In this document: positions 16,334 through 64,000 of the stretch, in pieces
Numbering within the stretch: the stretch's first letter is position 1
Layout of the letters: each line of letters opens with the position of its first letter
Program-made: the position numbers and the translations under genes
Notes under the pieces: model-generated
Seen by the model: only the letters and a program-made list of their open reading frames with translations
The model's database searches: none
Told to the model about the DNA's origin: nothing
Source: Vermamoeba vermiformis
Taxonomy: Eukaryota
Reading direction: 5' to 3'
NCBI GenBank assembly: GCA_045837725.1
Contig: JBEWZL010000294.1
Location: 124,001-188,000 of the forward strand
Length of the DNA: 64,000 nt

Positions 16334-17972
16334 ATGTTCAAGCAAATTGTGTCCAAAGTTGCGAGAATGGCTCATCAGGTACGCGGCTACAACACTGCCT
16401 TGCGCAGCGTGCCTGCTTTGAGACTGAACGACGGTAACATCATGCCTCAACTTGGCTTAGGGTAAGTACCATCCAATACAGTCGTATTTGCTTGTGCGAC
16501 GATTAAGTTCTGAGCACTTACGCAGATTTCAATTTGGAAAATGCAGAAATTAAAGCAAATAATATTTTCGGAATATCCTTAACATTGTTCTGTCATATTT
16601 CTTAATTTTAGAGGATTACAAATAGTTCAATCAAATTAAAAGTTTTATCATATTTTCAGCACGTGGCAGAGCAAGCCAGAGCTAGTCGGTGCCGCAGTGG
16701 AACACGCGGTGAAGGTCGGTTATAGACATATTGGTATGTAATTCACGAATATGTACCTTTGTTTCATTCACTAACGCAAGACAGACACTGCCTGGATCTA
16801 CCAGAACCAAAAGGAATTGGGCGATGCAATTAAGAAATGCATTCCTAAATATGGTAATAGCGATCGTATTGTATTGAAGCTAATTTTCCAAGCCTGATTG
16901 TTACCCTTCTCAGTGCAATCGCGAGCGGAATTGTTTATTACATCCAAGTTATGGAACACAGAGCACAAGCCCGACAAAGTCAAACAAGCTTGCAAGAATA
17001 CCCTTAATGTACATAATATCACAGTCTTCAATCGAGTCTGATTGTTCTTCTAGGAATTGAAATTGGACTACCTCGACATGTATCTCATTCACTGGCCCGT
17101 AGCGCTCTTAAATGACAATGAAACTGTTGATCGATCGGCGAATATCAAGTAAGGCGGCACTTATTTATTAATTATGAGTCGTGCTGATGGATTGCTATCT
17201 GTAGGGAGACTTGGCAGGCCATGGAAGTATGTGTCTTAAACTTTTATTTTCCACCGACTAGTGCAATGCCAATTGATATATGTAATACTAATAATAACAA
17301 TACAGACCCTAATCGAAGATGGACTCGTGAAAAGCATTGGTAAGTTGCGATGTCCCAGTGAGTTCACGACGATTTCTTACTTTGTGCGGTTGAACCATTA
17401 GGTGTGAGTAATTTCAGCGAAGAACACCTGCACACTTTGATTGAAGAGACGGACGTGATACCTGCTGTCAATCAGGTGGAGGTACATCCACTGCTCACTC
17501 AGACCAAGCTGCTCGATTACTGTCAACAGAACGGCATCGTCGTCACTGCGTACAGTACGTACACCATAGTCCTAGTGTCACTCGTACTCACGTGTCACTT
17601 TCACAGGTCCACTCGCGCGTGGCTCAACGAGTCAGGCGGCACAAAACGATCCCAAATATGACCTGTTGAATCAAAAGACGGTGCGTTGTACTTGTATAGT
17701 TTGAGTTTAATGCAGTGCTAACACGAGGCCTATGACAGGTGCGCGACATTGCCGCCAAGTACAACAAAACACCCGCGCAAGTGTGCATTCGCTGGGCCTT
17801 GCAAAAACAACTGATTGTCATCCCCAAGTCAGTCACGCCACGCCACATTGAAGAGAACTTGCACGTGTTTGACTTCACGCTCGAAGCTGACGACATGACC
17901 GCGCTGAACAAGTTGAACATCAATCACCGCACCGTCGTGCCCAAGTGGTACAAGTTCCCTGACCAACAGTGA
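16334..17972 (+). CDS. Aldo/keto reductase
   Basis: LNDGNIMPQLGLG|TW, GYRHID, LFITSKLWN, YLDMYLIHWP, IGVSNF, PAVNQVEVHP, VIPKSVTP. Arg-rich N-terminal extension may be a mitochondrial presequence. Confidence 0.92.
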
Positions 17973-18161
17973 GCGATGAACAGCAGGAGCTCGATGTGTG
18001 CACTTCGAGGCTTGAGATCTCGATGTGCATTGTAATATATGGATGTTAAAGGCTTGTTAATTATGATATAAATGCATCATCGGCATTCACTTCATGCGTC
18101 ATGTTATTTACATTAGATCCGTACAACAGATCAACTATAGTACAGTGCGATGCTAGTGATT

Positions 18162-19061
18162 CTAGTTCTTCTCGGCAAGTGCATCAGACTTGGCTTTCAT
18201 AGCGAGCCATTCATTGTGCAGTTCTTTCAAATCTTCGCGCAGATCTGACTTCTTCCAAGGCTTGAACTCGATGAAGTGGATGCACTTAATCTTGTCTGCT
18301 TGTTGTTTCCACGCCTTGTTGAAGTTGTAATTCAAATAAGTGGTCTGCAGTGCATTGTAAAAGAACGGCAAGTGATTCCATTGGCTGAAATACACGTTCA
18401 AAAAGCCTTGATCTGCGCCGTCGTGCGAGTGGATCGTGGGCAACTTGTCCATCATGTCCTTGAAGCGAGCAGCACTCGGCACTAGTACCATCATGCCCGA
18501 GTTGAAGTAGTCGCAGCAATCCTCCACTGCACTCAGTTCTGGCTGTGCAAACAGCTCGTCCACATTTTGCCGCACGAGAATGTCTGCATCCATGAACACC
18601 ACTTTATCGTATTGCGTCAATTCCCACACGCGTAATTTAGTCCATGTGTATGTAAAGTAATCGCGCAATTCATCTTGTTTGGGCCTGAAACAGCAATTCG
18701 TTAGAAAAATTATTTAAAATTTATTAAAAATAGTGATAACGTACGCCGGTGATTCAATGTCTTTTACGAGCACTATGTCGTCGAAATAAATATGCAGCTC
18801 TTTTTTAGCTTTTTCATACAAGCCGGGAGTGGCCATGAGCACGATCTTCTTCGTCGTCTTGCTTTCGCGCAATGAAGTCGCCCATACTCGCGCTGGTAGA
18901 AAATAGCTCTCAGTCGACACGAGTGTTACATAGGCACCGTTGTTTGAGTACTTGGATCCATCACCCAAGTTGTAAAAAGCAAACGTCAGCAGCACAAACG
19001 CTGCGAGCATCAATATGACGCCTTTAAACGACTTTAATGATAGTCCTTTGCGTGCGTGCAT
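18162..19061 (-). CDS. GT8 (glycogenin-like) glycosyltransferase, type II membrane
   Basis: N-terminal TM; AYVTL, TKLRVWELTQYDKVVFMDADILV, FNSG, DQGFLN, IHF...KPW. Confidence 0.88.
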
Positions 19062-19176: not shown

Positions 19177-20515
19177 CTAATTAGGTCTGACACTCGATTG
19201 CACAGTATTGCCGTTGATCAACAACTGCACGTTGGTCGGACAAGGATAGCCGAGGTTCTCTGCGATCCAAGTTGTGCGCGGGTTCTCCCAGTTGGCACTC
19301 TGTTGCATTTGCACCCAGCCCTTGCCACAGTCTACAGCCACTGACGAGGCTCCGGGCACAGCCACCTGCAGTGTAGTTGTTAGGACGAGCTAGGTTCTTG
19401 CTCCAGTGCACGTGTTACTTACAGCGAGCCACCACATGTTCGTGCCACCGTTCCAGGTAATGGTGAAACTGCCGCCAGTGGAGGGGGGAGGAGGAGGAGT
19501 GCTCGAGCCACAGAGCTGCTGCCACTCACACGATGAGCCACCCATCACTAGCGAGGCTGTTAGTGACTGTCACGCGCTACATGTCTGCTACGTACCATTA
19601 GGACAGCTGCCCCAAGTAGTGCTGATAGTGCCCTGTGCCGTGGGGTCATAGTAGCCTGCCCACTCTGAGCCTGGTGACTGCGAATTAGTGACACGTGTCA
19701 AATGTAGACCACCATCACGGACTTACAAGGAACTTGGCAGTATTGAATTCTGAAGGCACCGCGACCTCCAGCAGCAGCCTTGAACGCAGCAGCGTGCGAT
19801 CTGTTCATGAATACCGTTAGTCACGTGTCAACATTGCGTGTCAAAGTGTCACTCACTCGTCCAAGTCAAAATGTGTCACAGCATCAAAGTTATCTGTTAG
19901 ATAAGTGTCAGCATATTACTAACGCTATTATAGGACTTCATACTAGGTGCATCAGGTCTGCCAGCACACCAGACTTGATTTTCAGGGGCGGGACACAAAT
20001 CTGCAATTTTGACGACGATTTCAGGGCCGTTATTAGTGCACCAAGAGCCATAAGGATCGCCATATGCCTTAATACGATAGCAACGACCACAAGCAGGACC
20101 TGCACCTTGACCACTGCCCACGCCAAAGTCGTACTCGCTCAATGCAGCGGTCGGGTATTTGGCGACTGATTTACAGGTAATTTGAATCAACGACTCGCTG
20201 TATATTAGTCAAAGCTATACATACTGCCTGTCTGACAATTGCATGCGCCTGATTGGCCGTTTTGAAAGCTTGCTGTGTCGTACACGGTGGCCGTGCCTTT
20301 TAGAAAAATTCATTAGTTATGTCGTTTATAGTTCAGATATTCGTAAATAAGACTAAATAATTATTGAGTCGTGGCTTGTTTATTAAGTGTTTAACTCGCT
20401 AGTTAAGCTATATAATTGCAAAACTTTAACAACCAACTTGAGCAACATTGGCTAAACAGGCAGAGAACGCGTGAATAACAATTAAGCCAAGTAATAACGA
20501 GGCTCTTGTGTTCAT
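19177..20515 (-). CDS. Secreted expansin-like / GH45-like DPBB protein
   Basis: Signal peptide; GACNC, GPACGRCY, IADLCP, THFDLD; Pro-rich linker; C-terminal GTNMWWLA...GWVQMQ resembling expansin domain 2. Confidence 0.78.
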
Positions 20516-20616: not shown

Positions 20617-21808
20617 ATGAAGATTATACTCTGCACGTTATTATTTTTTGTAACGTGTACCTCATTGTGCAGCGCAGAACAAGTTACAGGCTTATTTCTT
20701 GGGGATGCAGTTTCCTCTCAAGTTCAACTGAATCAAAACAGATATTTCGCAGCCAGTATTCCCTCCACTACGAACAAACATTCGATTTTACTAGTTGATG
20801 TTATTGTTTACGCAAAATTAGCCGATAATACAGACTTGGTGGTTAGTTGATTGTCGGATCGTCAGATTGATTATGTTAATACGTCGTGCAGGTCTATTTA
20901 AGTCAGTCACCCCTGCCTACTAGTTCAACACCCGGTGTCATTGTTTCGACACAACGGTAAGGATTGAAGTGCACCACATTACTGCACGTGATTGGCTGAC
21001 ATTTGACGCGCAGTGACACGTTCATTTCACCCGCAGACACGCGCAACACTTACACACAGCTCATGACTCTCGTTGAGACTCCCAACAGCGGCACATGGTT
21101 CGTTACAGTGTCGTACACAGGCTCTGATAACAGCAACAACACTGTGGCCTTCTCATTGACTGCGCACTTTACAAGTAATGCTCTCACTCCCGTCACTCCA
21201 CAGCACTAACATTCTGCAGCGATGGAGCCCATAGTCAGTGGCGTGAATGGCACCATGGCGGAGGGGCAAGAGTTCAGATTGTTCAAATTCTCTCAGAGTG
21301 ATTTGCCCCCGAATGTGATGCAAGATCCGCTCGGTGTCTTCTTGTACTTCCATCTCACATCTCCAACCGCATTCAAAATGTATTTGCGCGTCGATCAAGT
21401 GCCAAGCGAATACGTATTTGACGTGGACAGCAATCTAAGACGTCAGGTAAAGTGGTACCAAGACACAACACCACTAATGACACGTGTCACTTGCAGTCCT
21501 CGCCCTCCATTGCAGAGCTGTTCGTGAATGGCGTGGACAAAGACATCTTGCTCATGGTGCGCAGAGATGGACGACAGAGCGTTGAGTTTGGACTGCGCAT
21601 GTCAACACTGCTGCGCTCAGACAATCCAGTCTTCGTGTCCACCTCTGCTGGAGTGCTCGCCGTGCTCGTCATTCTCGCAGTGTTGCTCGCAGCAGCTGTC
21701 ATCGTCCTCGCAGTGTTCGCTGTCAAATACGTCAAGCCTGCCTGCACCAAGAGCTACTACCACAGCGACCTTGGTGACACGTTGTTGTACAATAAAGAGA
21801 GCTCTTAA
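20617..21808 (+). CDS. Type I membrane protein of unknown function
   Basis: Signal peptide MKIILCTLLFF, beta-rich ectodomain, single C-terminal TM (GVLAVLVILAVLLAAAVIVLAVFAV). Confidence 0.65.
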
Positions 21809-21869
21809 ATTAATCCGCACTGCTAGACTAACAACGCACATTTATACTACAGCCCGTGAATGTGATCAG

Positions 21870-24064
21870 TCAGTTCGCGTGCAACATTTTGCGCAGCTCT
21901 TCAACTGTTTCTTGATTCTTCGCGGCACTCTTGACGGCCTCGACTTGTTTGTTGAGTTGATATTCAAACTTGTCCAACAACACCTTCTTCACGGACTCGT
22001 AAGTGTAGCCCAAGGCACCGAGTGTCACGAGCACACGATAGAGACTGTCTTCGCTGAGAGGTGTGTTCAACAGCTGTTGCGTGATTAGTGCTGCTATTAA
22101 TGCGTGCATAATACCGTACCTCGAGTGTCATCGTGGCTAATTCATCGACATTCTTTTGGTTGTCTTCACCTGGCTCGGAGTGTGAAATAAACAGCGTGGC
22201 ATAACTGCGAGGGAGTTAGAGCACTAATGCACAACTGATATAATATATATTCTTACTCTAACAGCACTGTGGTGAGACCGAGTTGTGTGCGCGCATCATC
22301 CAAATTGAGGGCCAGACAGTGCTGCAACAGTTCGGAGAATATTGACCGAGCAATGCGACGACCAGGCAAGAACTGGAACAAATTGGCTACAAATCTGCAC
22401 GATGTTAAGTACCAAGACAGCAATGGTTAATTAAACGCACCTCAAGGTCATGAATTGATTGGGCACGGGGGATTCAGACTCAGAGATGTTATTGAGCAGT
22501 GAGAGAATGACTGGTGCGGGTTAATAGAGAATTGTGTGTTATAATTGAGCGAGTACTCACAAGGTCGTTGATCCTCCGCCTGATAGTACTGCGTGGCATG
22601 TGGGTGAGTGACGAGTGTGCGGAAGAAGTCCATGCCTGTGAGCGACATTAGATGGCGTCAAATACAGCGCAGTAGGAGAGCTTACAAGGGAAGCGCTGTT
22701 TGATGGGCCAAGACAACAGCTTCTGCACAGCTTGGAATTCTTGTTTCGTGAACGACGTCACGTGATATTTGCTGGTCTGGGTGAGTACCTCAATCACGTG
22801 ATCAAAGTGCTTGAGTTCTGCGTCATTCAAAGCAGTCGGATCTGACTTGCTCGCGAGCTCAGCATTGACTTCTTTGATCTTTTTGATCACTGGCGGCAAA
22901 TTAACTGAATCAAACAGAACGAACATCTGGGTTGGGAAGTGTTTGTACGGGGAGGGTGCGGGTTTGACAGGTGTCACTACAGGTGTCACAATAGGTGCGT
23001 TGTTGTTGTTGTTCGAGTCAATCAGCGTGTTCTCCACGGCAGCACGTTTCTTCTTGCGAGCCTTGTCAGTGGACTCGATGACTTGTGTCTTTTTGCCACC
23101 GAGCTTCTCAATCTCGTAGCGCAACAGCTGCGTGACACGTGTCAGTTAGGAACTCCTAACGTCACAACCACGTGCTACTTACCCGCTCGAGTTCAGCCAT
23201 ATTAGAGAGAATAGAGACACCTTCAACACGCACTGAAGCTTGACCGTGCGTGAAGAGGTAAAACAGCGGTGAAATTGAATTGTATTTCTTGGCAATGTCC
23301 TGGCAGCTGTTAGAAAAGAGTTAAACAGTGAACTGACACGTACCTTGCACTCATCAATATCGAGCTTGATGAACAAGAGACTCGGGTACTCCAAGCTGAG
23401 GTGACAAAAGGTCGGATAAAAGTGCTCGCAGGGTTTGTACCACGAGGCGTAGAAGTTGACCACGCACTGCTAGGTGTTCAGTACTTAATGCGAGTGTTGT
23501 GCTGCACTTACAATCTTCGACTCGGTGGATAGCAGCAAACTATCGAATTGGGCTTGATTCTGCGCCGTTAATGTCACTACCGCACCACTGTCCTTGGGCG
23601 CTGGATGTCGCGTGAGTCAAAGCGCTGAATAAGCAGTAGTGTTCATTACCTAAAATTGCTTGCATTTGATGATCTTTGGAGTGTCGCTTATTCTCAACTT
23701 GCTTAGCATAGCATTCCTCGCATAGGTCATAGTCTTCACAGGTCAAGCATCTGCGCGAAATTATTACCTTTATTTTTAAATATTGTAGTATTATATTCAC
23801 CTGTATCTAGACCCTGTAAAGTTCTCTTTGCCACAACCTGGTATTTTTTAGAAACGTAAGTAATAATTTTCAGCAAATTGAAAATCCGGATTTCAACCCC
23901 AAATTGTCTAACTGTACAGTTTCCCATATTATCGCTAACATACCATCGCACGATACACCTTCGTGAGTTATTTGCTCCTCTTCTTCTTCATCATCCACAT
24001 CCATAGTGTCTTGCTTGAATGCTTGTGTTATTTCATCAAGAATGCTTTGTTGCTCGGGATTCAT
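21870..24064 (-). CDS. ZZ zinc finger - thioredoxin-like - PUL domain protein
   Basis: HEGVSCDG|C...RYRCLTCEDYDLCEEC...H...H (ZZ); VVNFYASWYKPC...FIKLDID (Trx fold); HFP...VIKKIKEVN...LLSWP...RFP...DFFR and YRVLVTLGAL (PUL-like). Confidence 0.75.
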
Positions 24065-30586: not shown

Positions 30587-33500
30587 ATGAACGATAAGCT
30601 AGAACATCGGCTGTATATAACTTGTAAGTACAAGCGTAACGGAACCAAATTTCCGTTGGATGGCAGCACTAACATTCGCGTGTACTAGATAGGGATCATC
30701 ATGGATGGGAGCACGTTGAATCACGGTTACAAAAATATATGATAATCCAAGACCTCAAATGGGTCAGTAAAGACGATGTATTCACGCAGGATGTAGTTTG
30801 CGATGTGGACGTTGGTTTCCTAGCACAAGCACAATATGATCGCATGGCTGGCCAGCAAGCCACACTACCTTTTGTAAACTTGCACCAAGAGCCATATGTC
30901 AAATTATTCTTCGGTAAGCACGCAATAATAAGATCTCAGATCCAGCTTATTTTGTAATTAGAGCTTCAAATATAACTAACAGCAATTTTAAAATATTATT
31001 GAACATTTTTTTACTAAAATTCTAACAACATTATGACAATATAATTTACCGACAAAGTATTTATTAACCGATCGTGGTTCAGTGGCCCCGAAGGACTACG
31101 AAGAATACAAAACAGATGTGAGACCAGTGCTGCGCGACTGGGTGAATTCATTTCAAGACAAAGACGTCGAGTATTTGATCGTGTACATTGACCTCAACAA
31201 GAAGCAAGGCATGCTCGACAAGCTCAATCTGCGCAGTATATTCGGCAATCTGCAGACTGAATTCAACAAGACCAAGTACGATCGGTGAGTACCCCTCGAT
31301 ATGTGCCGCACTATAGCCCTGTCTGACGCGCGCAGTGTCTGTCAATTCAAGCCAAACAGTCGCGAGGAGAGTGACAGCACGTGGCAAGATTTCTGGCTGC
31401 GACTCAAAGAGGCATTGGGCCGCAGTGTGGAGCGCGTGGTGGAGCAGTACAAGCGCGAGGTGAAGAAGTTGTTGGGCGAGCGACCGCTGCCTGGCTGGAA
31501 CTTCTGCAAGTACTTCACCGTCGTGGAGGGACTCGCCTTTGTGTACGAGGCACTGCGCCTGTATGAAGACGCGCTCAATCTGTACGACGATCTCGAGGCC
31601 TTCCAGCTGAGTACGTGCGAATATATACCGGACTGATGCATATGATGCGTGTTGACACCCCTCGCAGGCATGGATGAGCGCGAGATTGCACTGCCCCTCT
31701 TCGGCGGCAATGAGAAGGGCGATGACAGTGGCTCGGTGCTCGACTTCAACAAGAAGAACTACCGCATGAAGATCGCGACCAGCACCATCACTGAATTCGA
31801 CTTCAGACAGTACTTGTTCGCGCGACAATGCAAGGTGAGGTGGAGGGACGGTCTTAGTCAGTGATGTTATATTAATGTGCTGCTTACAGCTCCTCTTCTG
31901 TCACGGCAGACCAGTCAAGCTCGCTGAGCGCGCCATGAACTTCATTCGCACCTTCACGCGGCTGTTGCACGCAGAGAAGTTCAACGAGCGCTACTGCAAT
32001 TCGTGGGCATTCACAGCTTACATGGATGTGGCGGAGACCCTGCGCGCCACTATCTTGCGCGGTGGTGTTGGCGGTGCAGTCACCAATCTGTCGCCGCTCA
32101 AATCGACGGACCCTGCAGCGATTGCGGAACATCTCGCTAAAACTCCGAAATTGTCCGCACGCAATTTGCAGAGGTTGAATTACCTTCTCGGAGACATTTA
32201 TTATAATGCCCGCGTGACTGTAAGTGCGATATGATATGGTGTTGTTATTAATGACCCAATTTGCAGCTGGAACACTTGGGCTCGAGTTACAATCTGCTGC
32301 CACGTGACAGACGAGTCATTTTGAGTGAAGAGTCGTTGAAGCAGTTCAACATCACGGGCCTGGAGAGCACGAACACGTCCAACCAAGTGTTGCCGACGAA
32401 CAGAAAGCTCTTCTTGGAAGAGGGCAAGAATGACGTGCAGCTGATGGAGATCTTGGACAGCGACTCCAAGCCCGAGGAGAAGTTGGAAGAAGAGTCGCTC
32501 GATAAAGAGAACGCGCGCAAAGCTTTGGAACAGCTGTCACTCTCGCAATCCCCGCCACCCGATGCTATTATTCCCCCGCCTGAGGGAGTGCACGTTGAAG
32601 GTGAGCCGTTGACAGATGTCAAAGAGAGCACTGAGCCAGTGCCCATGAGTCCAGAAAAGAAAAAGAAGCGTCGCCGCGGATCATTGCGCTCCAAGACTGA
32701 CAAGAACAGCGACGAGAGTGACGAGAGCGAGGATGAGGAGGACGAGGACAAGAGTGACAGTGTCGATCAGAGTGCTGCAGCAACTGACTCCGCGGACCCA
32801 GCACAACCAACCGAGGATTCAGTGCATGACTCGTCCGAGCAGTCCAATGTGAACACAACGAGTGCCCAGGATGAGACGAAGAGCAGTGAGAACACAGCCA
32901 GTGAACTGACCAATCAGAGCACTGGACAACAGAATGCACCCACCACTGCACAGACCAATGAGAGCAAGCCTAGCGAGAACACAGCCAGTGACGTCAAGAC
33001 TGACAGTCCTCAGCAGCCTGTCAGTGACACGCAGTCCGCGGCACACAAGACTGACGAGCCCAAGAGTGACAAGAATGACGTGCAGTCCACCCCTTCAGTC
33101 AGTGAGAACAAGACTGAGGTGCCGAGTGACAGCAAGACTGCGCAGAACACACCCAGCACTGAGAACACTGCCGTGACACCTGTCAAGAGCAGCACTCCAA
33201 CCAACACGAAGCGTGATCTGTCGGGCAAAGTCGACTTCAACAAGATTCGCGATGGCACATTTGAGATCACACACCCCATTCTCATTACTGGCACTGCGAA
33301 TGAGGCCTCATTTGACAAGTTGTACACGGTACGTAGACTTCACTTTGACACGTGTCATTCACTCACCTCTTCCTCGCAGTCTCTGACAAACAAGGCTATT
33401 CAATGCTTCACAGACGTAGAGCGACATCGCAGTGTGATGCGTTTGAGTCAAGAGCTCGGCAACCTGCACTTGTAAGTCACTGTTTGACACGTGTCATTGT

Positions 33501-36241: not shown

Positions 36242-36309
36242 GTAACCTCACTTGTAATAAATACACCGTATGTCTGTACAAATCACTGGCCCTCGTGCTC
36301 GTGCAGCAC

Positions 36310-45646: not shown

Positions 45647-45738
45647 ATAAGTTCTGCATCCAGTTTGCTAATCGATTAGCTCAGTCCACACCTTGTATTT
45701 TAATAAAGCCTATTTATATTAATGAACAAGCACTGTCT

Positions 45739-48700: not shown

Positions 48701-51700
48701 GACTGGCCAAGTACGTCACGGTGCTCGTCACAAACTCGAGCTAATTATAGCGCAGATCAGTATCGTCACTTGCCTAATATGGCCATCACACTACGTACCC
48801 AGTAGAAGCGAATGTTGTAATTGGTGCTGGGCTGCAACAGACCCACCAGCAGTGTCTGCAAGAACATCGGGGAGGCAGCCAGCGAATTCTCGTCGCTGTC
48901 ACGTGCCTGACTCTTGCCGTCACTGGGCCCTGGTGACTTGACCACTGGATAGAGCGAGTCTATCAGCACGCAGGTGCGCAACAGCTGCAACAGCTGCACC
49001 TGCAAGATGAGACTCGACTCGCTCACTGCTTGCGCCAGACAGCCAATCACGTGCTCTTGAATCATGTGCGCCAGTTGACGCGCCTTGGCGGGCACGGTGA
49101 TCTTCAGCAACAAGTACTGCAGAAATCCCGCGCTGGTGGTCTGCACATCGACATTGCGCGTGATGAATTCGCTGGGTGCTTTGACCGGCGGTTGACCAGC
49201 GATGAAGCGCAGTGCCATCACCACCAACAGATCGAGATAGTTCGCGGGAGGTGCGTGCAGCACATCTACGGTGCCTGTGCGCGGTGTGGTACTGGCTGGC
49301 AGTGTGCCACTCGACTGCTGCACGAGCTGTCTGTCGTACTTGTCCACGAGATCACGTGACACGGGCTTGGCGCCAGTCTGCGAGACAAATGTCCGGAAGT
49401 CGCACTCGATGATGGCACGCAGCACCTTGAACACGTAGAGTATGCGGCGATGATCGTACACGTGCTGGTACTGATAGGTCAGCGCGGACATGGCCGTGGA
49501 GCTGTCGAGCAGCACCAGCAGCAGTGGATCCAGCACTCGCTCCGCGCGCTGCAGGGACTCAGCGAGCCAAGTGCGACCAGCGAGCCGCACGAGTGGTCCT
49601 TCGTCGTGCAGCGAGTCGAGCATGAGGAACAGCGTGCGACCGAGATTGATGTGGCTGGCTTGTGGCACTTCGCCAGTGAGTCGCCAGAGCAGTGCAAAGC
49701 GTTGCATGTGCGCGACTTTGAGTTCGGGCGAGGCAGCAGCGAGCAGTGACTCGGCAATCACGTCCTCGCAGGCCTCGGGGGCGAGGTGATGCAGCTCGAT
49801 CATGAGCGAGGCAGCTTTGTAGTGAATGACGCTCATCTGCCACTGGTGCTGCGGTGCGAACACGTACTCCCACAGGCGATGCGCCATGTCGCGCGCAGAC
49901 TTGGTGGTGTTGAGCACGTAGTGGATCACTTGCGGGGTGAGCGGTCCATTGGCGGGCAGTGTGAGCAGCGAGACAAAGGTCTTGACGGCAATGGCGATCA
50001 CGAGTGGATTGTCGTCACTCACCAAGCGAATCAGCACTTTGACCCAATCGGGCACTGACACTGTGCCACCTGCCACCACGGGAGCATCGAGCTTGAACTG
50101 CGCGTGCAGTGAGAGCAGCAGCTGACTGGCGAGATCGAGTGTGTAGACAGCGGGTGTGAGGGACCACACCTGACCCACTGTGTTCACTACTGTCGTGCCC
50201 GTCGTGTCCAAGCTCTCCAGTCCACCTTGACGCATCTTCTGTCGCTTCAGACGCAGCACGTGTTGTTGTGTCACGTGATCAATCTTCTCGCGCGCACGTG
50301 CGTTCTCGGTGCGCCAGATGGGCTCCAAGAGCTGATCGATCACCATCACATAGGCGTGATGATACAGCGCCACGGCACGACGCAGTTCATCGAGCTGTGC
50401 ACCGCTCTGCTCGCTGTCGTCAAAGTGCAACTTGCCACTGATCTTCAGCGCCAACTGCACGGCCATCAGTCCAGTCTCGTTCAAGCGTTGCAGCGGTGCA
50501 CTGTCGCGCGTGGCGTGCTCGACGATGAGCTGCAGTCCATTGAGCAGCGTGCTGAGCAGTCGCGGCAAGTGATGGACCTGCACATCGGCGCTGTTGAGCT
50601 GCAACATCTTCTCGAGCAGCGTGTCGACAATCTCAATGAACGACACCTCCGTCTCACTGGCACTGAGCTGCGTGAAGGACTGGTGCAGCGAGGTCGCGAG
50701 GAAGTCCCACAACAGCTGTGGCTTGAGATCTGCGAGCAGCGCATTGACCAGCGAGATCACCTCGGAGGTGAATGCGTAGCCCTCTTTGTAGGTGTGCAGC
50801 ACGAGCAGCGGCCAGTACAGCACGTGATTGATGATCTCTTGACCAATCTCCACGCGCTCCAGCAGTGTGGTCAGCATCTTGAAGGTGTCAGTCACGTGCT
50901 TGCTGTCGCTGAACGGCTCTTCAAAGCTGCGCTGCAGTGCCAGCAACAGCGGGGCCTTGGCAAAGCGCGCAAAGTAAGTGACCTGCGCATCGAAGAGGTA
51001 GTCGTCGTGCTCGACTGCAATGGGGTTGTTGTCCTTGTCGCGGCCAGTGAGCCACTGATAGATGCGGCGATTGAGCGACACCTCTTTGCGCAGCTGCACG
51101 CGCAGGGTCTTGGCGATGAGCAGCGACCACTGTTCGAGCGTGAAGATGTGGTGGTGCACTTGAAAGCGCGTCAGAATCAGATCGAGGGCCGTGCGTTGTA
51201 CCAGCAGATTGCTGTCCGAGATGCCTGCAATCAGCGCATTCAGCACCAGGGTGTCGCGCTCAGGACACCACTCCTCCAGCACGTGGCGGTCATCGTCGTC
51301 ACGTGACAGCTTGGGCATCTTGTCGTACAGGTAGTGCAGCGAGGCAATGCGGGCTGTGGGATTGAGCAGCAAGCTCTTCCACACGGCCGTGTTGAACTGT
51401 CGCAAGTGACCGCGGATCGGACCACACGCGTTCAACAGTTCACTGAATATTTCCATAACGGGCTTGTAGCACTCGGCGTTGAGATCTTCGAGCCCTGGTA
51501 GAAGTGACATGACGAGTCCTTCGAGACTGGTGATCACGTGGGCTCCGAGTGGAATCACGTGACTTTTGACCCAGCCGAGCACTGCCATCTTGACCTGGGA
51601 AGAGGCCCAGGGGAACAATGAGAGCGGCCCTGGCAACCAGAGCGCGAGATCACGTGACAGTCTGGTGGCACCGAGTCGTGTGCTGATAGCCCCGAGCACT

Positions 51701-52132
51701 TCGAGGGACTTGAGATGCACACCACTGGGCAACGCGGGACTGCAACACTGCGCTACACGCTTGCTGAAAGTCAATTTGTCTGGTACGATGGGGATCTGCT
51801 GGTACTTGTCGAGCACCTAGTGGGGGGAGAGCGGTGTTAGCGCAGCGAGGGAGATCTGGCTTCATGGTGCGTGGAAAGGGTATATACTGGTATTTATATG
51901 CATTACTCATCGCTACGCTTACCTTTTGAATACGTTGCAAGCACTTGATCAGATCTGCCCACTCCTTTGCTCGATCGAACAGCGCTAGTTGAGCTTTAAA
52001 GTCATCGACGAATTGTTTGAATTTTGGATTGTCTTTGAACTCTTCATAATCTATTGTATCATCGCATTAGCTCTCAGAGGTGAAATTGACTGGTTAGCGG
52101 GATCAGGAGAATTACTCACCATCTTGTTCCAT
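45739..52132 (-). CDS. DOP1: Dopey / DOP1 family protein
   Basis: FDRAKEWADLIKCL...KRVAQCCSPALPSGVHLKSLE...LLPGLED...SLNRRIYQWL; C-terminal KRLAFVIY...SFWPVVITEL. Confidence 0.92.
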
Positions 52133-55812: not shown

Positions 55813-56109
55813 GTCTATTGCCTTATTTGGAAAGTGAGGCCCGAGCTGTCTCACGTGCCAGTGTGATTAGAGCTCAAACACGTGTATTGTAACTATAAAT
55901 AACCCTTCTCGTTGTAACCTCGTGTCTTGCTGCAGCTGCGCCATAGTAGTGCTCGTGTAACTTCTTGGCGCGTGTGAGTAGTGTGGAGATCAGTGCCTGG
56001 CATGAATTCAGTGAAAATGAGGTTATGCTGAGCAGCACGTGACAGCTGACATTTGTTGCAATCAGTGCAGCACACTGCCACAAGTATACAGATATATATA
56101 TATATATAC

Positions 56110-58675
56110 ATGGGAAATACTGACAGCAAAACACAGCTGCACACAGCACTCACCAAGCTGGCGAGCGAGTCTATTCCAGCAGAGCAAGATGTCCTGTGGT
56201 CGAGTTTCTGGCAATTACCGACATCTACAGAAGTCATATTCAACGCATTTAATAGCAATGAGTTGCATGACTTGCGCAGTAAGCAACCGGAGAATTACGT
56301 AACCTTGATCCAAAAGGTAATTAATTATTACTGACTATTATTAAAAGCCATTGTGATAATCAGAATATCATGAGATATACAATAATTATATTTATTGGTA
56401 AATTATGCATTAATTCATCGTGCTTTGAATTTAAGGTAGTCAGCCACTTGGAGCTCGTTACCAGCACATCCAAGGCCTACAGTGCCGATGAAACACGTCA
56501 TATACAGAACTGTATCGCACTATTAACGCGACTAGTACCGGCTGGCTTTGAACAGTTTGACTTGCCCGATCAACTCGACAGCTTCGAGCAGCGCGTGTTC
56601 TGGACTCGTGCGCCCGAGACAGTGCCACGTGACAGCAGTGTGGCGGAGACAGTGCCACGTGACAGCAGTGCACCCGAGACAGTGCCACGTGACAGCGGTG
56701 TCGATGAGGGCGCTAACAACAGTGCCACCACACAGCCAGAGCCAGCCAATCACGAGTCTGCACCGCTCACTGCACCTATTAATAGCTCCGAGTCCGCTCC
56801 CACAGACAATTGTTCCGCACTGGCACCGCGCATACTGTCACTCGTCATCAAGCTGCTATTTTTGCCGCACTTCACCGCAGCAGTCCACCATCCCCAAATA
56901 TGGTATAGCGGTGTAGGTGTGCCTGCTGATGCTAAAATTAGCAGCACGACAGCAGCGATGGCCAGCAATCGCGTGTTAACTTTGCAGTTGTTGCTGGCAG
57001 TGCTGTCGCACGATCTATTTTTGTCACCTGCGCTCTATTTTAAGCGCAGACTGCGCAATGCGTGGCTGGACTACTTGACGCACCCGCCACGTGACAGCAC
57101 CATATATGGTCAAGTGCCGCACGTGCTGTACTCGCTGCTGAACACTGCCCTGCGCTACGATCCGATTGGCTGGGGCGTGCCGTACAATCACCTGCTGTTC
57201 AGCGATCAGCAAGAGGAATTGCTATATAAGGTAATCGGTGATCGATCTGTCGTAACTGATATTGACTTGCTATTTAAGGCATTGCAAGTGCTAGCGCTCA
57301 CTCTTAATTATTCCGCTGATCCCTGGACGGAGGACGATGCACCGTTCACTGAACAGCAAGCGGAGATCAGTGCCACCGACAATCTATTTATAGCCACACT
57401 GCGCGAGATTAGCGATCGCAGTTCACTCGATCAGCTGTACGGCATGTTCACTGCCTTATTTGGCAATCCTCTGCGCGCCAACAGCACTTACTTGCCAAAT
57501 TCGGCCAAAGAACTCAATTGCCACCCGGAGTTGTTGATTCTATTTTGGGCACTGATTCGTAATCACCCTGTAAGTTGTTATTTCCTTTTATGGAATATCC
57601 AGTCAGTTCTGACTTGCCAAATATAGGCGTTTCTGAAATATCTGATCACCGTGCAGTGCACTGCGCGCAAAGATCTGACAGGTAACTGCAGTGTTATTGC
57701 CTAATTTGGACATAGAGTACCACGCGTATCAATTGACTGACGCTCTGTGTAGTGCTCTACGCGCTGTTGCATCGCATCTACCAGGGCCGCAAAGATCCCG
57801 CGCAGCTCGGTCACGTGCACTTGACAGCACTCATCCTGCTCGTGCTCAGCTCGGAGCGGGACTTTGCGATTTCACTGAACGAGCCACTGACGACCACCTA
57901 CAAATCTCAACTCGATCTCCCGCGCTTCACAGGCACGCACGCAGATCTGCTGGTGCTGGTGCTGCTGAAGCTAATTATGGACGGCCACAAGCGACTCGAA
58001 GCACTGTGGGACTGCATCTTGACGGTGCTGGCCAATGTCTCGCCCTACTTGAAGTCACTTGCCACCGTGACTGCAAACAAGCTGATCAAGCTGTTTGAAC
58101 TCACCTCGCGTCCGAGCTTTGTGCTGGCCCAGGAGCGCAATCACCGCTACGTGTTCTATCAGCTCGAGCTCTTCAACAACGTGCTGCAGTACCAGTACGA
58201 GGGCAACACGCACCTCGTCTACGCCATCATCCGAGAGCGCGAGCTGTTCACCAAACTGGTCAGTCTGCGCATTGAACCCGCGCCTGAGAGCGAGGAGCAC
58301 AAGGAACACTTTGTGCCCAGTCCTGAGTGGCTGCAGTCCTGGCAGTCACGCTTGCCCGTCAACACTGTGCTGCGCTATCTCTCCAGCATTGTGCCACAGC
58401 TCAATGACGTAGTGCACGGTGACGCCTCAGACTCGCAGGCACTGCTGGCATTCTTGAAGCGTACCACTGCTGTGGGTCTATTGCCCGTGCCGCATCCTAT
58501 TCTCATACGCAGATATCATGCCACTGCTGCTTCAGCACTCTGGTTGCACTCCCATATTTGGGGAGTGCTGTTAGTACACAATTTAAAGCCCACCCCTCTG
58601 TGGAGCACGGGTGTTAGACTTGTACAGCTGCATTCATCTGCAGACGGCAATGGCAACAAAACAGAGAACAAATAA
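56110..58675 (+). CDS. HID1: HID1 (Ecm30-like) Golgi protein
   Basis: MGNTDSK...FW; YDPIGWGVPYNHLLFSD; LLVLSSERDFAISLN; GTHADLL; YQYEGNTHLVYAIIR; GLLPVPHPILIRRY. Confidence 0.92.
56613..56700 (+). repeat. 30-bp tandem repeat x3 in HID1 (ETVPRDSS..)
   Basis: GAGACAGTGCCACGTGACAGC at 56616, 56646 and 56676. Confidence 0.95.
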
Positions 58676-59015
58676 AGCTCAAGAGTATTACCAATTTTGA
58701 GCAAATTAGAATGGTCAAATTGCCACAATCCATTTGTTTAGATAGAGTGGAGAACTCCATCAGAAAATGCTCAACATACATCCACCCTGGGGGTCAGTCT
58801 TGCAACATTGAACAGATATGGTCAACCGTTGTATAACTATTACAGAAAAATGACAAAATGGGAACATAATGGATGAACTGGAAATGTTTGCTTTGCAAAG
58901 AACAGTCGGTCCAAAAGTGTTCTCAAACGGACTATCCTCTTGAGATATTCATCTTTAACATGCAATGTGTTTCTTTTTATTTCTGACATGTCAACTATGT
59001 TGCAAACGATTAATA

Positions 59016-59833
59016 GGAGGACGTCCTGCCCAAATTAGACAGGGTGTCCGTCCATAGACAGGGCGTCCGTCCAGGGACATGGCGTCCGTCCGTGGACAGT
59101 GTGTCCGTCCAGGGACAAGGCGTCCGGATCTGGACGGGGCGTCCGCTGAAGATAGTTATTAACGAAATTCAATTCTGTTTGCTGCAGTAGGTAGAGCATA
59201 TATAGGATACTACTAGGTATGAACTTTCCATCCACATCAGCTTCCAGCCACTGGAGATAGAGAAAGAATTGTAATCGCCATACATTGGAAAGATGGATAT
59301 TTTGGCAAATGGATGTAATTTCAGCGTCTTTATCAAGAAAATAACGTATTTTTGCAACCAGGACCTGTTTGGGGCACAAAGAACAGTTTTACATCCTATC
59401 CAAAAATTGTGTGCTATTTGAGCTATCATCTTACAGATATGTAGTTCTGCATAGAACTGGCCAGATATGGATTGTTGTGAATGAGAAGTTTCTCATAACA
59501 AAGTGCAAATGTTGAATCTTTCTATTGAACTCTGACATGCCCGCTATGTTGCAAACGACTCTGTATGTCATGCCAAGCCGTAGGTATCAAAATCTTTGTT
59601 ACTTGAGCCATTTGGAGCTTGATTTCAAAAAAAGAGGAACTTTCTCCAGCTCAATCCCTAGAGCTTGGCCAGCAAGGAAACCATCAAACTCATCCAAAAT
59701 ATAGGTATCCACGACAATTAGGTGCTATTAGCCTTTTATTCCATGAGAACCTAGTGATGGCAGACGCCCTGTCCAGGTCCGGACGCCCTGTCCAAATCCG
59801 GACGTCCTGCTCAAATTGAGCAAGACGACCTCC
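59016..59833. mobile_element. Putative non-autonomous TIR element (MITE-like) with subterminal repeats
   Basis: Left GGAGGACGTCCTGCCCAAATT versus right (reverse complement) GGAGGTCGTCTTGCTCAATTT; GGACAGGGCGTCC-type repeats at both ends; ATA flanks both sides; no coding capacity. Confidence 0.6.
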
Positions 59834-59994
59834 ATATAGTATAGTTGGTTGAGTGTGCAGATGAATGGCTTCATACTTAATGCTGTAAATTCAAAAATTG
59901 CTGTCTACAATATCTTTGATGATTACTTTGTCTACTTGTTACATAGTGATAGTGCTAGGTATTTTCAAAGTTGAAAGGTATTGAGGCAAATAGA

Positions 59995-60750
59995 ACAAAG
60001 TTCTGCTGCAGAAGTTCTTTGCAGAACAATGCCATTTTCAGCCTCCAGCGCTTAGCCCAAAGCCTCCTGATGCCAACAGTAGTGCTTCTTGGGCCCGTTG
60101 GTATTAATGGCAAAGTTTGGTTTAAGTTGGTCAATTACTAACATCAGCGGTGCAGTACGGACAATTACGGACACCCTGCTCACCACGTGCAGGACGACCT
60201 CCCCCAGGTTCAAACCAGCCGGCATACCTGATTTTTTATATTTTATGGCTCGGTACCTGCTCAAGGTGGACTGAAGCTGTCACCACACTGTTGCATGGGT
60301 TCAAATCCTGTGTGTGCATTTATTTTTATCCTCATAGTCGAATGATCTTTGTCAGGGATACGCAACTTGTCTGGGCAGGATCTTAGCCAGGCTGGACACT
60401 CACCTTGGCTGGCTATGTCATCCGGTGTACACTGGATTGGCCATCCTCCACCATGTGCAAATTGGGGTCTGTTGAAGTTCTTTGCAGAACATTGCAATTT
60501 TCATCCAGCCCAAACGTGATGCCAAGAAAAAAGTTCTGCTAAATTTCTTGCAGAAATGTGCCATTTTCAACCTCCGGTACTTACCCAAAGCCTCCTGATG
60601 TCAACAGTAGTACTTCTTGGTTGCCAGTGCTAATGGCAAGTTGGTACAAGTTGGTCAATTCTTGTGTCCAGGGTAGACATCCGCCATTGCATTGTCCCTA
60701 ATGGACACCCTGTCCCTACAGAGCTTCCCAATTGGGCAGACTAACCTCCT
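59995..60750. repeat. Diverged ~540-bp tandem duplication, each unit ending in a copy of the same GGAGG terminus
   Basis: GCCATTTTCA.CCTCC...CCCAAAGCCTCCTGATG.CAACAGTAGT.CTTCTTGG at about 60031 and 60560; terminus-like CCTCC ends at 60202 and 60749. Confidence 0.7.
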
Positions 60751-61016
60751 GGGATGTCCAGATATTCTAAAAAGCCAATCTCTTTCTTTTTAGACATGAT
60801 CTGCCAACTCTGGAGTCAGTAATTGATTTTAGTTGGGTCCTTGGTCAGCACCTCCACAAGTAGTTATCAACTTATGGTACTAGCTAACCAACAATTTACT
60901 TGGACATAAGTTGTGGCAAAACTCAGGCAACTGCTCAGGAAGGCCAAACCTGTAAGCTTGGTACAAGCAATCAGTACGTTACTCATTAAATGGAACGGTG
61001 AAGTTTATTAGTGATT

Positions 61017-64000
61017 TTACTGCTTCAGAATGCGAGTGAAATAGCGAGCCACTACCTCACTCAAAGCACGGTCCTTGGCTCTGATCTTTACTTCACACTG
61101 CTGGGGCTCAAGCTTGGCGTGCAACAATACCATGGTTGGTGTAGTGTTGATCAAGCGCGAGGCACCAATCACCTCTTTGCCAATCACTTTGATCTGCGTG
61201 AAGTTCATGGCGTGAATCAGCTGTCCAAACTGCTCGAGGGACAGCACTTTGTTCTTGAACACGAGCTTGGTCTCGCACGTGTGAGTGCCCCACTGCTGGC
61301 CAAAGCTCTCCGTGGTCATGTTGTGCGCACGGAGCAGGTCCGGCAGATCGATCGGCGCAGTGAACTTGAGCGTCTTGTCCGCGGCGTGACTGCTCGTCTT
61401 GTAGGTGAGTGTGGCACTGAGCGTGGGATTGAAGATGAGTTGTGACAGCACGAGATCGATCAGCACCAGCACTGCTGTGTGCGGAGGAATGACATTGATC
61501 GTGAGCACGTGATCGGTGGCACGTGTCAAATCGACGACTGAATCAGCGCGATAACTGACAGCAAAGTTGTCTGGTGGCACTACTGTCACGTGCAGATCTG
61601 ACAGCACGGCATCGCTCTTGTTGCACACGAACAGCACCACGCCGAGAGATTGCTCTTGCCAAATGTGGAAATAGTTGATTTGAAGTTGCGTGTCATTGGC
61701 GATCTTTTGCGGCTTCTCGTGCGATCGAGGTCTGCCGTCGATCTAAAAATAGCTCCAGTGAGTAATTGAAAGCATTGCCTTATTTAGTCATACCTCAGTT
61801 TGAATGAATGGGGTAGTTGCCAAATTAGGTAAGTCAAAGTTATCCTCAAAAGTGGGGTCAAGTTGTCTTGCCAAATTAGGCGAAACAGCGATTGGAGTGA
61901 TCAATGTTTGCAGCTCTTTCGTGTCTGGCGTGCTGGGTGCAAATGCGTCAAAAATAGACACAGTGGAGCTATTATTAGTAGCAAGAATCGGCTGATTGAA
62001 GTCGAACGACAGCAACGAGTCCACCGAGCCCTGGTTGACTGTATTGTATGGCGAGCCCTGGTTGATCGTGTTGAATGGCGAGCCCTGGTTGATCGTGTTG
62101 AATGGCGAGCCCTGGTTGATCGTGTTGAGTGGTGAGCCCTGGTTGATCGTGTTGAGTGGTGAGCCCTGGCTGATGGTGCTCAGCGGCGAACTTTGCGTCA
62201 CGTGCTCGTTGGTGTGCAGCGGACTGGACGAGTCAGGCACGTGCTCGTTGGTGCTGGTCGGCGTGCGCTTTTTCTTTGCTTTAGTTTTCTTGGTGGCACC
62301 TTCGAACAGCAGTGCGGCCATCAATTCCTCTTGCGTGGGCTGGTGATTGACAGGTGCCACTTGATCACGTGCTCGCACACTCGGACTGGCGCGCGGTGGT
62401 GTCACAGTGCCAGGCGTGGACTCACGTGGTGCGGAATTACTCGGCGTGACAGGAGTGACAGGTGCCACTGGCTTGGGCGCGGCAGCTCCGTAGCCAGATT
62501 TCGACCAGGGTCCACTGACCTGCTTGAGACTCGCAGCGGAGAGTGGTCCCGAGGGCACTGCGGCAGGCGTGGTGGCACTTGGCACGTTAAAAATAGACTT
62601 GCTCTCCTCGGCAGTCTGCTCGAAGATTGATCCGCTCGATTTGGTGGCACTTCCCGTGGTGGGTGGTGCTTTGTAGGTCTCGAAACGCAAAGACTGTTCG
62701 CGGCCAGGCTGCACTCCCGATTTGGTAGTGTCACGTGATGTATCCACGCGCTGATAGTCACGTGCTCCTTGACGCAGTGCTTGGCGCGTGTACTCGTCCA
62801 AAAATGTCAATTTGCGATCTACTTTGACGGGTCGATCGAACAACGTGGCTAATTTGGACACAATCACGTGATCGCGCGGGAGATTGTTCAGGATGGTTAC
62901 CAAATTAGTCAAGTCACGTGCAATTTGCTGAGTGACCACGTGACGCGAGGCAGTGTATTTGAGCACAGTCTCGAGGGTGGTCGAGGAGACAGGTGCCACC
63001 TGCCAGTCACGTGACACGCGCTTGGCGAGTGCCATCAGAATCCACGCGCGCACTTCACCGCGCGAGTACTGTCGGTCGAGCAGATCTGTCAACATGTCAC
63101 TCGCGGTCACGTGACGATATTGCTCGAGATCGCGCAGGAGATTTCCGTACTCGCCGAGAATCCACGCAATGACTTGGGCCAGTAAGTCGGGCACGGATTG
63201 TTCTTGCAGCTTGTCATTACCATTTTTGGCAATGAGGTATTTCATGGCGTGCTTGACCGCGTGACGGCGCAGCGTGAGATCTTGCTGGAGATCTCCCGTG
63301 CCAGTCTGCAGCACGGTGAGCAGCTGATCGAGGTGCGAGGGTTGCACCAATTCTGCGCCTAAATATAGACACTTGAGCATGGCAGCAATGTACCAGGCAG
63401 GGGAAGGTGCAAATTTCTCGCAGAGAGCGGTGATCTTGCCGATGAGATCGCGGCGGAGATAGAGGTCCGTGCTGCTCTTGAGGTGCGCGAGCATCTTGGT
63501 GACGACGAGCGTGATGTTCTTGGGGCCCGTCATCTTGTACAAGAGCTCGAGGGTCTTGCGCTGAATGGAGTCATCGGGGTCATTGAGACACTTGAACAGC
63601 AGCACTTGGTGTTGAATCACGTGGCGCGGATTGATCTCGATCAGATCGGACAGCGAGTGCAGCGCCAAGTACTTGAGATTCGGATCTTGCGTGGCACTGC
63701 GCGCACGTGTCGACTGCGCACTGACACCGCTCTTGGGATCGAAGGTCAGCATGTGACTCACGTGCGTGGCAGCCTCGTCGACCAGGGCCTCGGTGTTGCG
63801 ATCATTTGCAGCGTGCTTGTAGACGCGCACAATGGTGTTGACCGTCTCGTGCAGCACCGAGTAGGCCGCGTTGTAGCTGGCAGTGTCCGAGTTCTGCGTG
63901 AGGTACGCGATCGATTTGTTCAGCGTCTCGTGCAACACGTGGTACAGATCACGTGCGGCACTGGCGTCGAGTTGACCGAGCACACCGAAGATCTTCAACA
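61017..64000 (-). CDS. AP4E1: AP-4 complex epsilon subunit (5' end lies beyond the window)
   Basis: Adaptin trunk NLKYL...HQVLLFKCLNDPDDSIQRKTLELLYKMT...EKFAPSPAWYI...AWILGEYG; epsilon-type LRFETY motif; ear domain in the last exons. Confidence 0.85.
62026..62187 (-). repeat. 27-bp tandem repeat x6 in the AP4E1 hinge (NTINQGSP[L/F/Y])
   Basis: GAGCCCTGG recurs every 27 bp from 62026 to 62161. Confidence 0.95.

Follow-up and report, generated by a model that had tools for sequence, protein, structure and literature searches.

CACGTG is a highly iterated palindrome in gene bodies of a Vermamoeba vermiformis sequence and may be a maintained DNA-level recognition site

We find that the hexamer palindrome CACGTG is iterated through exons and introns of a 64,000-nt stretch of the genome of Vermamoeba vermiformis (assembly GCA_045837725.1, contig JBEWZL010000294.1, positions 124,001 to 188,000 of the forward strand; hereafter the window, in whose own numbering all positions are given). 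It occurs 102 times by exact search, ranks first by z-score among all hexamers, and leaves an imprint on the choice of codons and residues. [quoted passage not shown] The evidence comes from this one window and from one 6.5-kb contig of a relative.

Excess of CACGTG and its imprint on codons

Ninety-nine of the 102 copies lie within 17589-63955, the very number that a preliminary description of this sequence had estimated by eye, and the other three are at 3188, 3780 and 16660. The description had put the expectation from base composition at 12–16, which agrees with our order-0 value of 13.7, and its regional counts (about 24 for the Dopey region 45859-51651 and about 20 for the AP4E1 region 61276-63950) are within one of ours (25 and 20). 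Markov models of order 1, 2, 3 and 4 predict 22.4, 26.9, 50.0 and 74.6 copies, so that the excess is 4.6-fold against dinucleotides, 3.8-fold against trinucleotides, two-fold at order 3 and 1.37-fold at order 4; the order-4 null includes the enriched pentamers CACGT and ACGTG themselves and is not independent. In 100 dinucleotide shuffles the mean was 22.3 (standard deviation, sd, 4.8; maximum 37), and none reached 102. The enrichment is 4.6- to 7.5-fold over the window as a whole, and in the densest 2-kb bins it rises to 16- to 26-fold over base composition and 6- to 9-fold over the dinucleotide model. As the ratio of observed to expected counts (O/E) is 1.1 for ACGT and 0.97 for CpG in the window, the excess is explained by neither a CpG nor an ACGT effect.

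The coding sequence alone gives the same picture. The 26 open reading frames (ORFs) of at least 150 aa contain 67 CACGTG, where shuffling of synonymous codons with the proteins preserved gives 24.9 (sd 3.9, maximum 35, n = 500), a 2.7-fold excess, and shuffling of codon order gives 11.8 (maximum 22). Reading frames 0, 1 and 2 hold 33, 29 and 5 of these sites, in keeping with the earlier statement that all frames are occupied; frame 2, the rare one, needs Thr-Cys or Thr-Trp, both uncommon. Codon contexts were tallied in 19 ORFs of the motif-bearing part (6367 codons). His-Val pairs are seen 38 times there, with 18 expected from amino acid frequencies, and 33 of the 38 are spelled CAC-GTG, a spelling that independent codon use predicts for about 40%. 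When Arg stands in the context xCA-Arg-Gxx, its codon is CGT in 29 of 32 cases, as compared with 83 of 330 Arg codons overall and about 18% of the Arg codons outside motif contexts. Avoidance of ACGT at Asp-Val, Asn-Val and Tyr-Val pairs is not claimed, as the tendencies there are weak and the numbers small (GAC-GTN 11/23, AAC-GTN 4/14, TAC-GTN 9/10). The pressure toward CACGTG thus acts at the DNA level, independently of composition and codon usage, and the excess persists under the Markov and codon-shuffled nulls to which the preliminary description had pointed.

It might be supposed that the palindrome is a by-product of composition, codon usage, codon-pair bias or amino acid content, as CA/TG and GC are in excess in the window (1.28 and 1.23), His and Val are preferentially encoded by CAC and GTG, and the order-4 model shrinks the excess to 1.37-fold. 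That model is made from the enriched pentamers, however, whereas the dinucleotide, trinucleotide and synonymous nulls leave the 4.6-, 3.8- and 2.7-fold excess given above. Introns are enriched too, the preference for CGT is tied to the motif context, and the window ORFs outside the field of sites show none. We consider this explanation very improbable; a composition or codon artefact was rejected on the shuffles, the Markov nulls, the codon contexts and the introns together.

Most copies are within gene bodies, about 62 of the 102 in ORFs of at least 150 aa (67 on the list of 26 ORFs used for the codon shuffles) and about 16 in introns identified by eye, and intergenic copies are also present (for example 25929/25941 and 55852-56036). 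With a density of up to 7 per kb, this is not the sparse promoter or enhancer location of an E-box, as the preliminary description had also remarked. Pfam matches in the window include Dopey, AP-4 epsilon, HID1/Dymeclin, TRAPPC10, a JmjC protein, an aminotransferase and a kinase. In the Dopey region (Dopey_N, 8e-68; TPR_DOP1; TPR_DOP1_M), the ORF at 48766-51816 uses CACGTG in 9 of 9 His-Val pairs and in 5 of 8 [STPA]-Arg-[VADEG] triplets, and in the AP4E1 ORF at 61788-63998 all 8 His-Val pairs are realised as CACGTG. No named relative of AP4E1 exceeds 33% identity. The AP4E1 coding sequence also carries, at 61998-62213, a 27-bp tandem repeat in 6 copies that encodes a 9-residue repeat (family D1). 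The Hid1/Dymeclin domain matches ORFs 56325-57626 and 57737-58675, and the best named relative of HID1 is an MMETSP transcript from Trichosphaerium (Amoebozoa) at 55%. There are also exons free of the motif within the motif-rich part, namely 34267-35049, 54360-55082, 21528-22088 and 18162-18713.

Introns, flanks and the form of the site

Introns were called beyond 16.6 kb by a strict heuristic that gave 39 short introns of 2072 nt in total, a set in which errors are possible and from which some introns recognised by eye are missing; a looser automatic calling gave many false candidates within coding sequence. The 39 introns contain 10 CACGTG where 0.40 are expected (about 25-fold), and 9 of them carry at least one. 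The density is 4.8 per kb (10 in 2.07 kb); that of the host ORFs is 3.5 per kb (67 in 19.1 kb). Joints derived from RNA data put most introns at about 46–65 nt and a few at up to about 100 nt. The 12-mer TGACACGTGTCA is found 7 times in the window, always within short GT..AG intervals read as introns (Table 1). Six of these had been listed in the preliminary description, correctly as intronic, and the copy at 21478 had been overlooked. Among the 15 joints listed out of 69, two agree with motif-bearing introns: a contig of run X7 joins 38731 to 38787 with 3 letters between, and 11 reads of RNA run X21 join 46752 to 46807 with 5 letters between, both consistent with removal of introns 38735-38786 and 46753-46801, respectively.

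The location of the sites within transcribed gene bodies, and in 9 of 39 heuristic introns, would be compatible with an element acting in the RNA, for instance one that enhances splicing or export, or at which the transcript is modified or paired. A perfect dyad is needless for an RNA signal, however, and a loopless palindrome of 6 to 12 nt is unable to fold back; copies are scattered from +9 to +40 within introns, and sites are found between genes as well. An RNA-level role is in our opinion quite improbable. A scan of the window with Rfam matched no family.

The form of the site is that of a whole dyad. The base after CACGT is G in 204 of 286 occurrences counted on both strands, the half-site words CACGT[A/C/T] have O/E of 0.55–1.0, and in the densest 2-kb bins nearly every ACGT belongs to a CACGTG (16 of 18 in 62001-64000 and 10 of 11 in 50001-52000). 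The whole dyad is thus favoured over half-sites. With half-sites pooled by hand, T accounts for 41% of position -1, G for 30%, A for 19% and C for 10%, while purines make up 81% of position -2. The extended form RTCACGTGAY is seen 18 times with 0.47 expected, and window sites have the flanks by which class-B bHLH-Zip sites are recognised (T at -1, purine at -2).

Beyond three bases on either side the flanks of the 102 sites are unrelated, and a repeat search of the window gave no dispersed repeat family carrying CACGTG other than one 3-copy tandem repeat, at 56608..56708, the only place where copies are seen to be duplicated locally. A dispersed repeat, a miniature inverted-repeat transposable element or an introner-like element was rejected on these grounds, there being no shared sequence beyond the core apart from that 3-copy family. 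Clustering at short range is mild, with 16 gaps of at most 30 bp where 9.4 ± 2.6 are expected (p about 0.014); the tandem repeat accounts for 2 of the 16.

A second palindrome family, TGACANNTGTCA, is seen 14 times with 0.21 expected. Its centre is CG in 7 members, CC or GG in 5, GA in 1 and GC in 1, many members have T...A flanks that make a 14-base palindrome, and several of those without CG appear by eye to be within reading frames. As the family is enriched with varied centres, the TGACA/TGTCA arms seem to count in their own right, apart from the CACGTG core. Mild enrichment is also seen for other short palindromes (8-mers 243 vs 193, 10-mers 79 vs 50). As a separate observation, some palindromes are avoided in the window, with O/E of 0.24 for CCGG and 0.35 for CTAG, and among hexamer palindromes CCTAGG (0), GTATAC (1), GGCGCC (2) and ACCGGT (2) are rare.

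The words one step removed from CACGTG are not clearly drained. Overall 357 are seen where a trinucleotide Markov model expects about 349, a comparison that is not decisive for a drive toward the palindrome, as a reversible process need not drain its neighbours. The two neighbours that CpG deamination would produce, CATGTG and CACATG, are seen 25 times, with 62 expected from dinucleotides or 32 from trinucleotides.

Conservation in relatives and motif-poor stretches

A search with AP4E1 gave a Joint Genome Institute (JGI) protein, P0154, with 86% identity by BLASTP and 91% in a separate alignment, and a metagenome scan based on P0154 gave two sequences, L001 and L002, which overlap at 100% identity and therefore form one 6.5-kb contig. 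It aligns to the window with 81.8% nucleotide identity over 2970 bases, and it too is rich in the palindrome, with 15 copies in L001 (1.3–2.6 expected) and 8 in L002 (0.6–1.0 expected). The orthologue comparison covers one gene, AP4E1, in one relative. All 13 AP4E1 sites of L001 are CACGTG in the window, as compared with 74 of 149 hexamers of the same composition (Fisher p 2e-4) and 62 of 178 xxCGxx hexamers (p 3e-6). In the other direction, 13 of 20 window sites are orthologous, as compared with 74 of 212 (p 0.014) and 62 of 198 (p 0.005). At conserved residues, the third codon position is identical in 30 of 35 cases inside sites and in 516 of 769 outside.

The seven AP4E1 sites found only in the window align without gaps to hexamers of L001 with 1 to 3 mismatches, 4 of them by purely synonymous changes, and so CACGTG arises by substitution, not insertion. 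These gains are one-sided, with 7 in the window lineage and none in L001. An insertional origin, be it a tiny palindromic mobile element, excision footprints or in-frame insertions of 6 bp, might account for the enrichment of other 8- and 10-base palindromes, for the TGACANNTGTCA family (14 vs 0.21), and for the three copies that came by 30-bp tandem duplication. It is at odds with flanks that are unrelated beyond ±3 bases, with the lack of a repeat family and with the gap-free alignment of all 7 window-only sites, and we regard it as scarcely credible; insertion or excision footprints were set aside since the lineage-specific AP4E1 copies are not indels.

In 45 distant AP-4 epsilon homologues (mean identity 26%), the His of the His-Val sites matches in 17 of 308 alignment cells, and some motif residues occupy columns that are invariant in 45 of 45 homologues, in an alignment that is locally uncertain at this identity. 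Judged from these alignments, the residues encoded by the motif are mostly lineage-specific. Among three close lineages His-Val is retained at 8 of 10 sites. Strains that diverge by roughly 2% and 6% are also represented. In the range spanned by the 40 strain differences listed, out of 869, there is one motif site, 35996, with no listed change in its core and with A at the adjoining position 35995 in run X21. We also observe that one RNA sequencing run labelled as the same species matches 32000-51999 mostly at 90–95% identity (2169 of 3169 reads), so that the label covers clearly diverged lineages.

Three parts of the window stand apart (Table 1). The 796-aa transposase-like ORF, presumably the element that the preliminary description called a Kolobok, has no CACGTG, as had been said. 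Pfam gave no match to this ORF; Atlas feature matches to Mutator-like and THAP transposase clusters (0.81–0.92) are a lead only. At 41338-43338 the RNA depth is 0, and the depth of soil-metagenome run X6 is also 0 with the flanks covered, as if a silent element were present in some strains and missing from others. The repeat-bearing stretch near 58.7-61 kb has the single site that had been described there; it looks foreign, with CpG O/E of 0.46, CC/GG of 1.09 as compared with 0.62–0.72 elsewhere, and a tetranucleotide correlation with the rest of the window of 0.26–0.35. A similarity comparison of the two largest motif-free ORFs with each other gave nothing.

The third part, at 1-16600, is of host type, with genes for a TRAPP subunit, a BSD-domain protein, an ERGIC-53-like lectin and a MADS-box factor (Pfam Lectin_leg-like, Ank, SRF-TF, TRAPP, BSD and zf-His_Me_endon), and none of its 10 codon-level opportunities is used (0/4 His-Val, 0/6 [STPA]R[VADEG]). 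Its dinucleotide signature is attenuated (CC/GG 0.83 vs 0.62–0.72, CA/TG 1.16 vs 1.27–1.41 in motif-rich parts). Being host-type yet motif-poor, the block indicates that CACGTG marks part of the host DNA and not all of it. The host self-mark that the preliminary description had proposed thus fits the transposase ORF and fails for this block, which is nearly without the palindrome as well (2 sites).

The boundary near 16.6 kb is abrupt, the motif-poor side having a lower G+C content at third codon positions (GC3) along with the attenuated signature, and it may stem from recent acquisition of the segment, from a change of chromatin or recombination compartment, or from a join made in assembly. 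Within the block, ORF 9405-9797 on the minus strand matches PF05551, the zinc-binding loop of His-Me finger homing endonucleases (2.4e-12), and beside it, inside ORF 8950-9408, is a 51-bp tandem repeat in 3 copies (8978-9136). A locus at 43300-44700 without CACGTG is very highly expressed, with a summed contig depth of 281–715 in run X7 and about 160 reads per strand in RNA run X21, as compared with single digits nearby. It shows joints marked 'opposite strands' (44099/44192 and 44114/44143) and many loose read ends, and its ORF 43838-44320 on the minus strand has a weak PNRC motif match only.

Table 1. Positions of CACGTG-bearing features, motif-poor stretches and introns in the window
Feature	Positions	Strand	Remarks
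Field of 100 CACGTG	16660..63955	no strand	contexts unrelated; densest in long housekeeping genes
Dopey-family gene region	45859..51816	-	25 CACGTG; exons include ORFs 46798-47298, 47286-48740, 48766-51816
AP-4 epsilon (AP4E1) gene, truncated by window end	61017..63998	-	20 CACGTG; Pfam Adaptin_N, AP4E_app_platf
30-bp tandem repeat, 3 copies, each with GCCACGTGACAG	56608..56708	+	inside HID1/Dymeclin gene; repeat family D4
TGACACGTGTCA	19689..19700		predicted minus-strand intron 19678-19726
TGACACGTGTCA	21478..21489		short plus-strand GTAAAG..CAG interval, intron by eye
TGACACGTGTCA	23133..23144		predicted minus-strand intron 23128-23182; second CACGTG there at 23169
TGACACGTGTCA	33346..33357		plus-strand GTACGT..CAG intron of about 51 nt
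TGACACGTGTCA	33485..33496		predicted plus-strand intron 33472-33523
52-nt intron	38735..38786	+	TGACACCTGTCA at 38740 and TGACACGTGTCA at 38771
54-nt intron	46217..46270	-	TGACACGTGTCA at 46246
49-nt intron	46753..46801	-	GTCACGTGAC at 46770-46779
Motif-poor block	1..16600	no strand	2 CACGTG among 56 ACGT; host-type genes
Transposase-like ORF, 796 aa	41077..43467	+	0 CACGTG
Repeat-bearing, foreign-looking stretch	58701..61200	no strand	one CACGTG at 60184; diverged repeat family D3

Recognition, drive and known iterated words

We favor a maintained recognition site because the word is that of the E-box and G-box, the flanks are of Cbf1 type, the dyad is whole, and the sites are conserved above control words. 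Under this reading the graded flanks, t-R-T-CACGTG-A-Y-a, with the intron-favoured form TGACACGTGTCA, would make up one dyad-symmetric recognition site, actively maintained at about 2.5–7 per kb along many gene bodies of this lineage, exonic and intronic sequence being equally concerned. Its likeliest reader would be a homodimeric bHLH-Zip protein of the Cbf1/USF/TFE class, and a basic leucine zipper (bZIP) protein of the G-box type might read the TGACACGTGTCA form. Upkeep of the site would be strong enough to impose particular synonymous codons and even exchange residues, and its role, at a guess, could be in chromatin or in a kind of 'licensing' of a class of long, modestly expressed genes. 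Excerpts of a preprint (bioRxiv 10.1101/2022.03.17.484790) give GGTCACGTGACC as the Cbf1 target site used and report binding of Cbf1 to the Pho4-type CCCACGTGGG as about 300-fold weaker. In the window, the Pho4-type C at -1 is the rarest flank and the dominant flank, GTCACGTGAC, makes a Cbf1-type site. Of the 64 palindromes of this length, it is precisely the canonical E-box/G-box that is iterated, and we also count for this reading that the silent, insertion-polymorphic transposase ORF is without the palindrome.

Several points weigh against the recognition site. To our knowledge there is no precedent for transcription-factor sites at one per 150–400 bp in coding exons. Any function would not be general to host genes, as the 16.6-kb block and several exons of the motif-rich part lack the motif. 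The stronger the dinucleotide signature (CA/TG excess, CC/GG and TA deficit), the denser the motif, a covariation that looks like a mutational gradient, and density peaks in long genes that are probably under weak constraint; a drive held in check by purifying selection would account for both at least as well as a function. Conservation of position is no proof of selection, because a strong repair bias would also restore sites, and the orthologue comparison is limited to one gene and one relative. Finally, it is not obvious that a single protein would read both of the preferred flank types, GTCACGTGAC and TGACACGTGTCA.

The main alternative is a molecular drive without function, in which a sequence-specific bias of repair or gene conversion would turn near-matches into CACGTG and bring back mutated copies, within limits set by purifying selection on proteins. 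One possible form is a cytosine methyltransferase directed to CACGTG together with a Vsr-like nuclease for T:G mismatches; in another, also possible, a bound site would shield its own chromatid from breaks. A drive would fit the similar density in every sequence class (67 in 19.1 kb of host ORFs, 10 in 2.07 kb of introns), the near saturation of synonymous opportunities (33/38 and 29/32), and the displacement of residues in columns invariant in 45 of 45 distant homologues, which is damage typical of drive. Likewise, density tracks the dinucleotide signature, being nil in the young transposon and near nil in the attenuated block, and it peaks in long genes of modest expression, with no copy in the very highly expressed locus at 43.3-44.7 kb. 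CATGTG and CACATG fall below expectation (25 vs 62 or 32), and all 7 lineage-specific AP4E1 sites are substitutions of 1 to 3 bases, 4 of them synonymous. On the other side, we know of no sequence-specific repair system of this kind in eukaryotes, and a literature search found none. That the driven palindrome should be the universal E-box, with Cbf1-type flanks, would be a 1-in-64 coincidence. The one-step neighbours are not drained overall (357 vs about 349), although a reversible process need not do so; the gains are one-sided (7 in the window, 0 in L001); and block 1-16600 would need an exemption. Drive without function is a real possibility, and one we lean against. The preliminary description had offered both mechanisms, a mark for binding or methylation and a repair bias, with no choice between them, and the present data are compatible with either.

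The two ideas can be combined in a self-spreading eukaryotic counterpart of the cyanobacterial palindrome HIP1, which we think unlikely. A dimeric CACGTG binder would coat gene bodies and give the DNA beneath it protection, be it against silencing or against breaks that arise in meiosis or repair. Where an individual is heterozygous, breakage would fall on the unbound allele, which would be copied from the bound one, so that the site would be over-transmitted; sites would then build up with residence time, rewriting codons and residues, and long-resident genes would end up distinct from later arrivals, among them transposons and block 1-16.6 kb.

Whatever maintains it, the DNA word decides the synonymous codon in about 90% of the places where a compatible one is available, and its residues replace those aligned to conserved columns in distant homologues (about 26% identity, locally uncertain), which has consequences for models of codon usage, gene prediction and the inference of selection in this lineage. 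The contrast of motif-rich genes with the motif-free transposon and the motif-poor block could give a clock or a compartment marker from sequence only. The likely class of reader, bHLH-Zip, is well understood, and its sites are here rarely ordinary promoter elements. A full-text literature search, outside which most subscription journals and supplements lie, gave no report of CACGTG or any other HIP-like word being iterated genome-wide in the nuclear DNA of a eukaryote.

Compared with the known E-box and G-box sites of Cbf1, USF, TFE/MITF, Myc-Max and plant G-box bZIPs, the core is identical and is present as the whole dyad expected for a homodimer. GTCACGTGAC is the TFE/MITF 'CLEAR' element. 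It occurs in papers whose titles concern TFEB and TFE3, and as the dominant flank form here it equals the Cbf1 target GGTCACGTGACC of the preprint excerpts cited above (bioRxiv 10.1101/2022.03.17.484790). The known E-boxes are sparse and stand in promoters, enhancers and the centromere element CDEI, whereas most of those in the window stand in coding exons or in introns, reach 7 per kb, and prevail over the choice of codons and residues.

Very-short-patch repair (Dcm/Vsr acting on CCWGG in E. coli) is a site-specific pair of methylase and repair enzyme that raises the frequency of a short palindrome genome-wide, coding sequence included. It differs from our case in being bacterial, in its far smaller effect, and in depleting a specific neighbour, whereas the neighbours of CACGTG are not clearly drained. 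Chi, DNA uptake sequences and the intron PATC clusters of C. elegans are 'self' words enriched in resident genes, missing from invading DNA and read by host machinery that distinguishes the two, and PATC clusters protect germline genes from silencing. CACGTG resembles them in its absence from the transposase ORF. These words are oriented or periodic and not palindromes, however, and here a 16.6-kb block of host type is nearly without the word.

The closest likeness, already seen in the preliminary description and borne out here, is to HIP1. For HIP1, an association with a cognate DNA methyltransferase and an origin of the methylase/Vsr type have both been proposed. In the passages of Xu, Lawrence and Durand (2018, PMC5861425) that we draw on, this cyanobacterial highly iterated palindrome (GCGATCGC) is described as hyper-abundant, present within and between ORFs and conserved above expectation, with a genome-wide over-representation of 15- to 300-fold and a reported periodicity of 10–90 kb. 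CACGTG shares with it a short perfect palindrome in many-fold excess that persists after controls, presence in coding and noncoding sequence, an imprint on codons, conservation of position above control words, and a nature that is not that of a peptide or RNA motif. HIP1 differs in being an 8-mer of other sequence in bacterial chromosomes, whereas the word described here has six letters and graded flanks, belongs to the nuclear DNA of a eukaryote, is present also in spliceosomal introns and is identical to the E-box. The debate between selection and biased repair applies to both, and we suggest that CACGTG offers a tractable route to this question for hyper-abundant oligomers in general.

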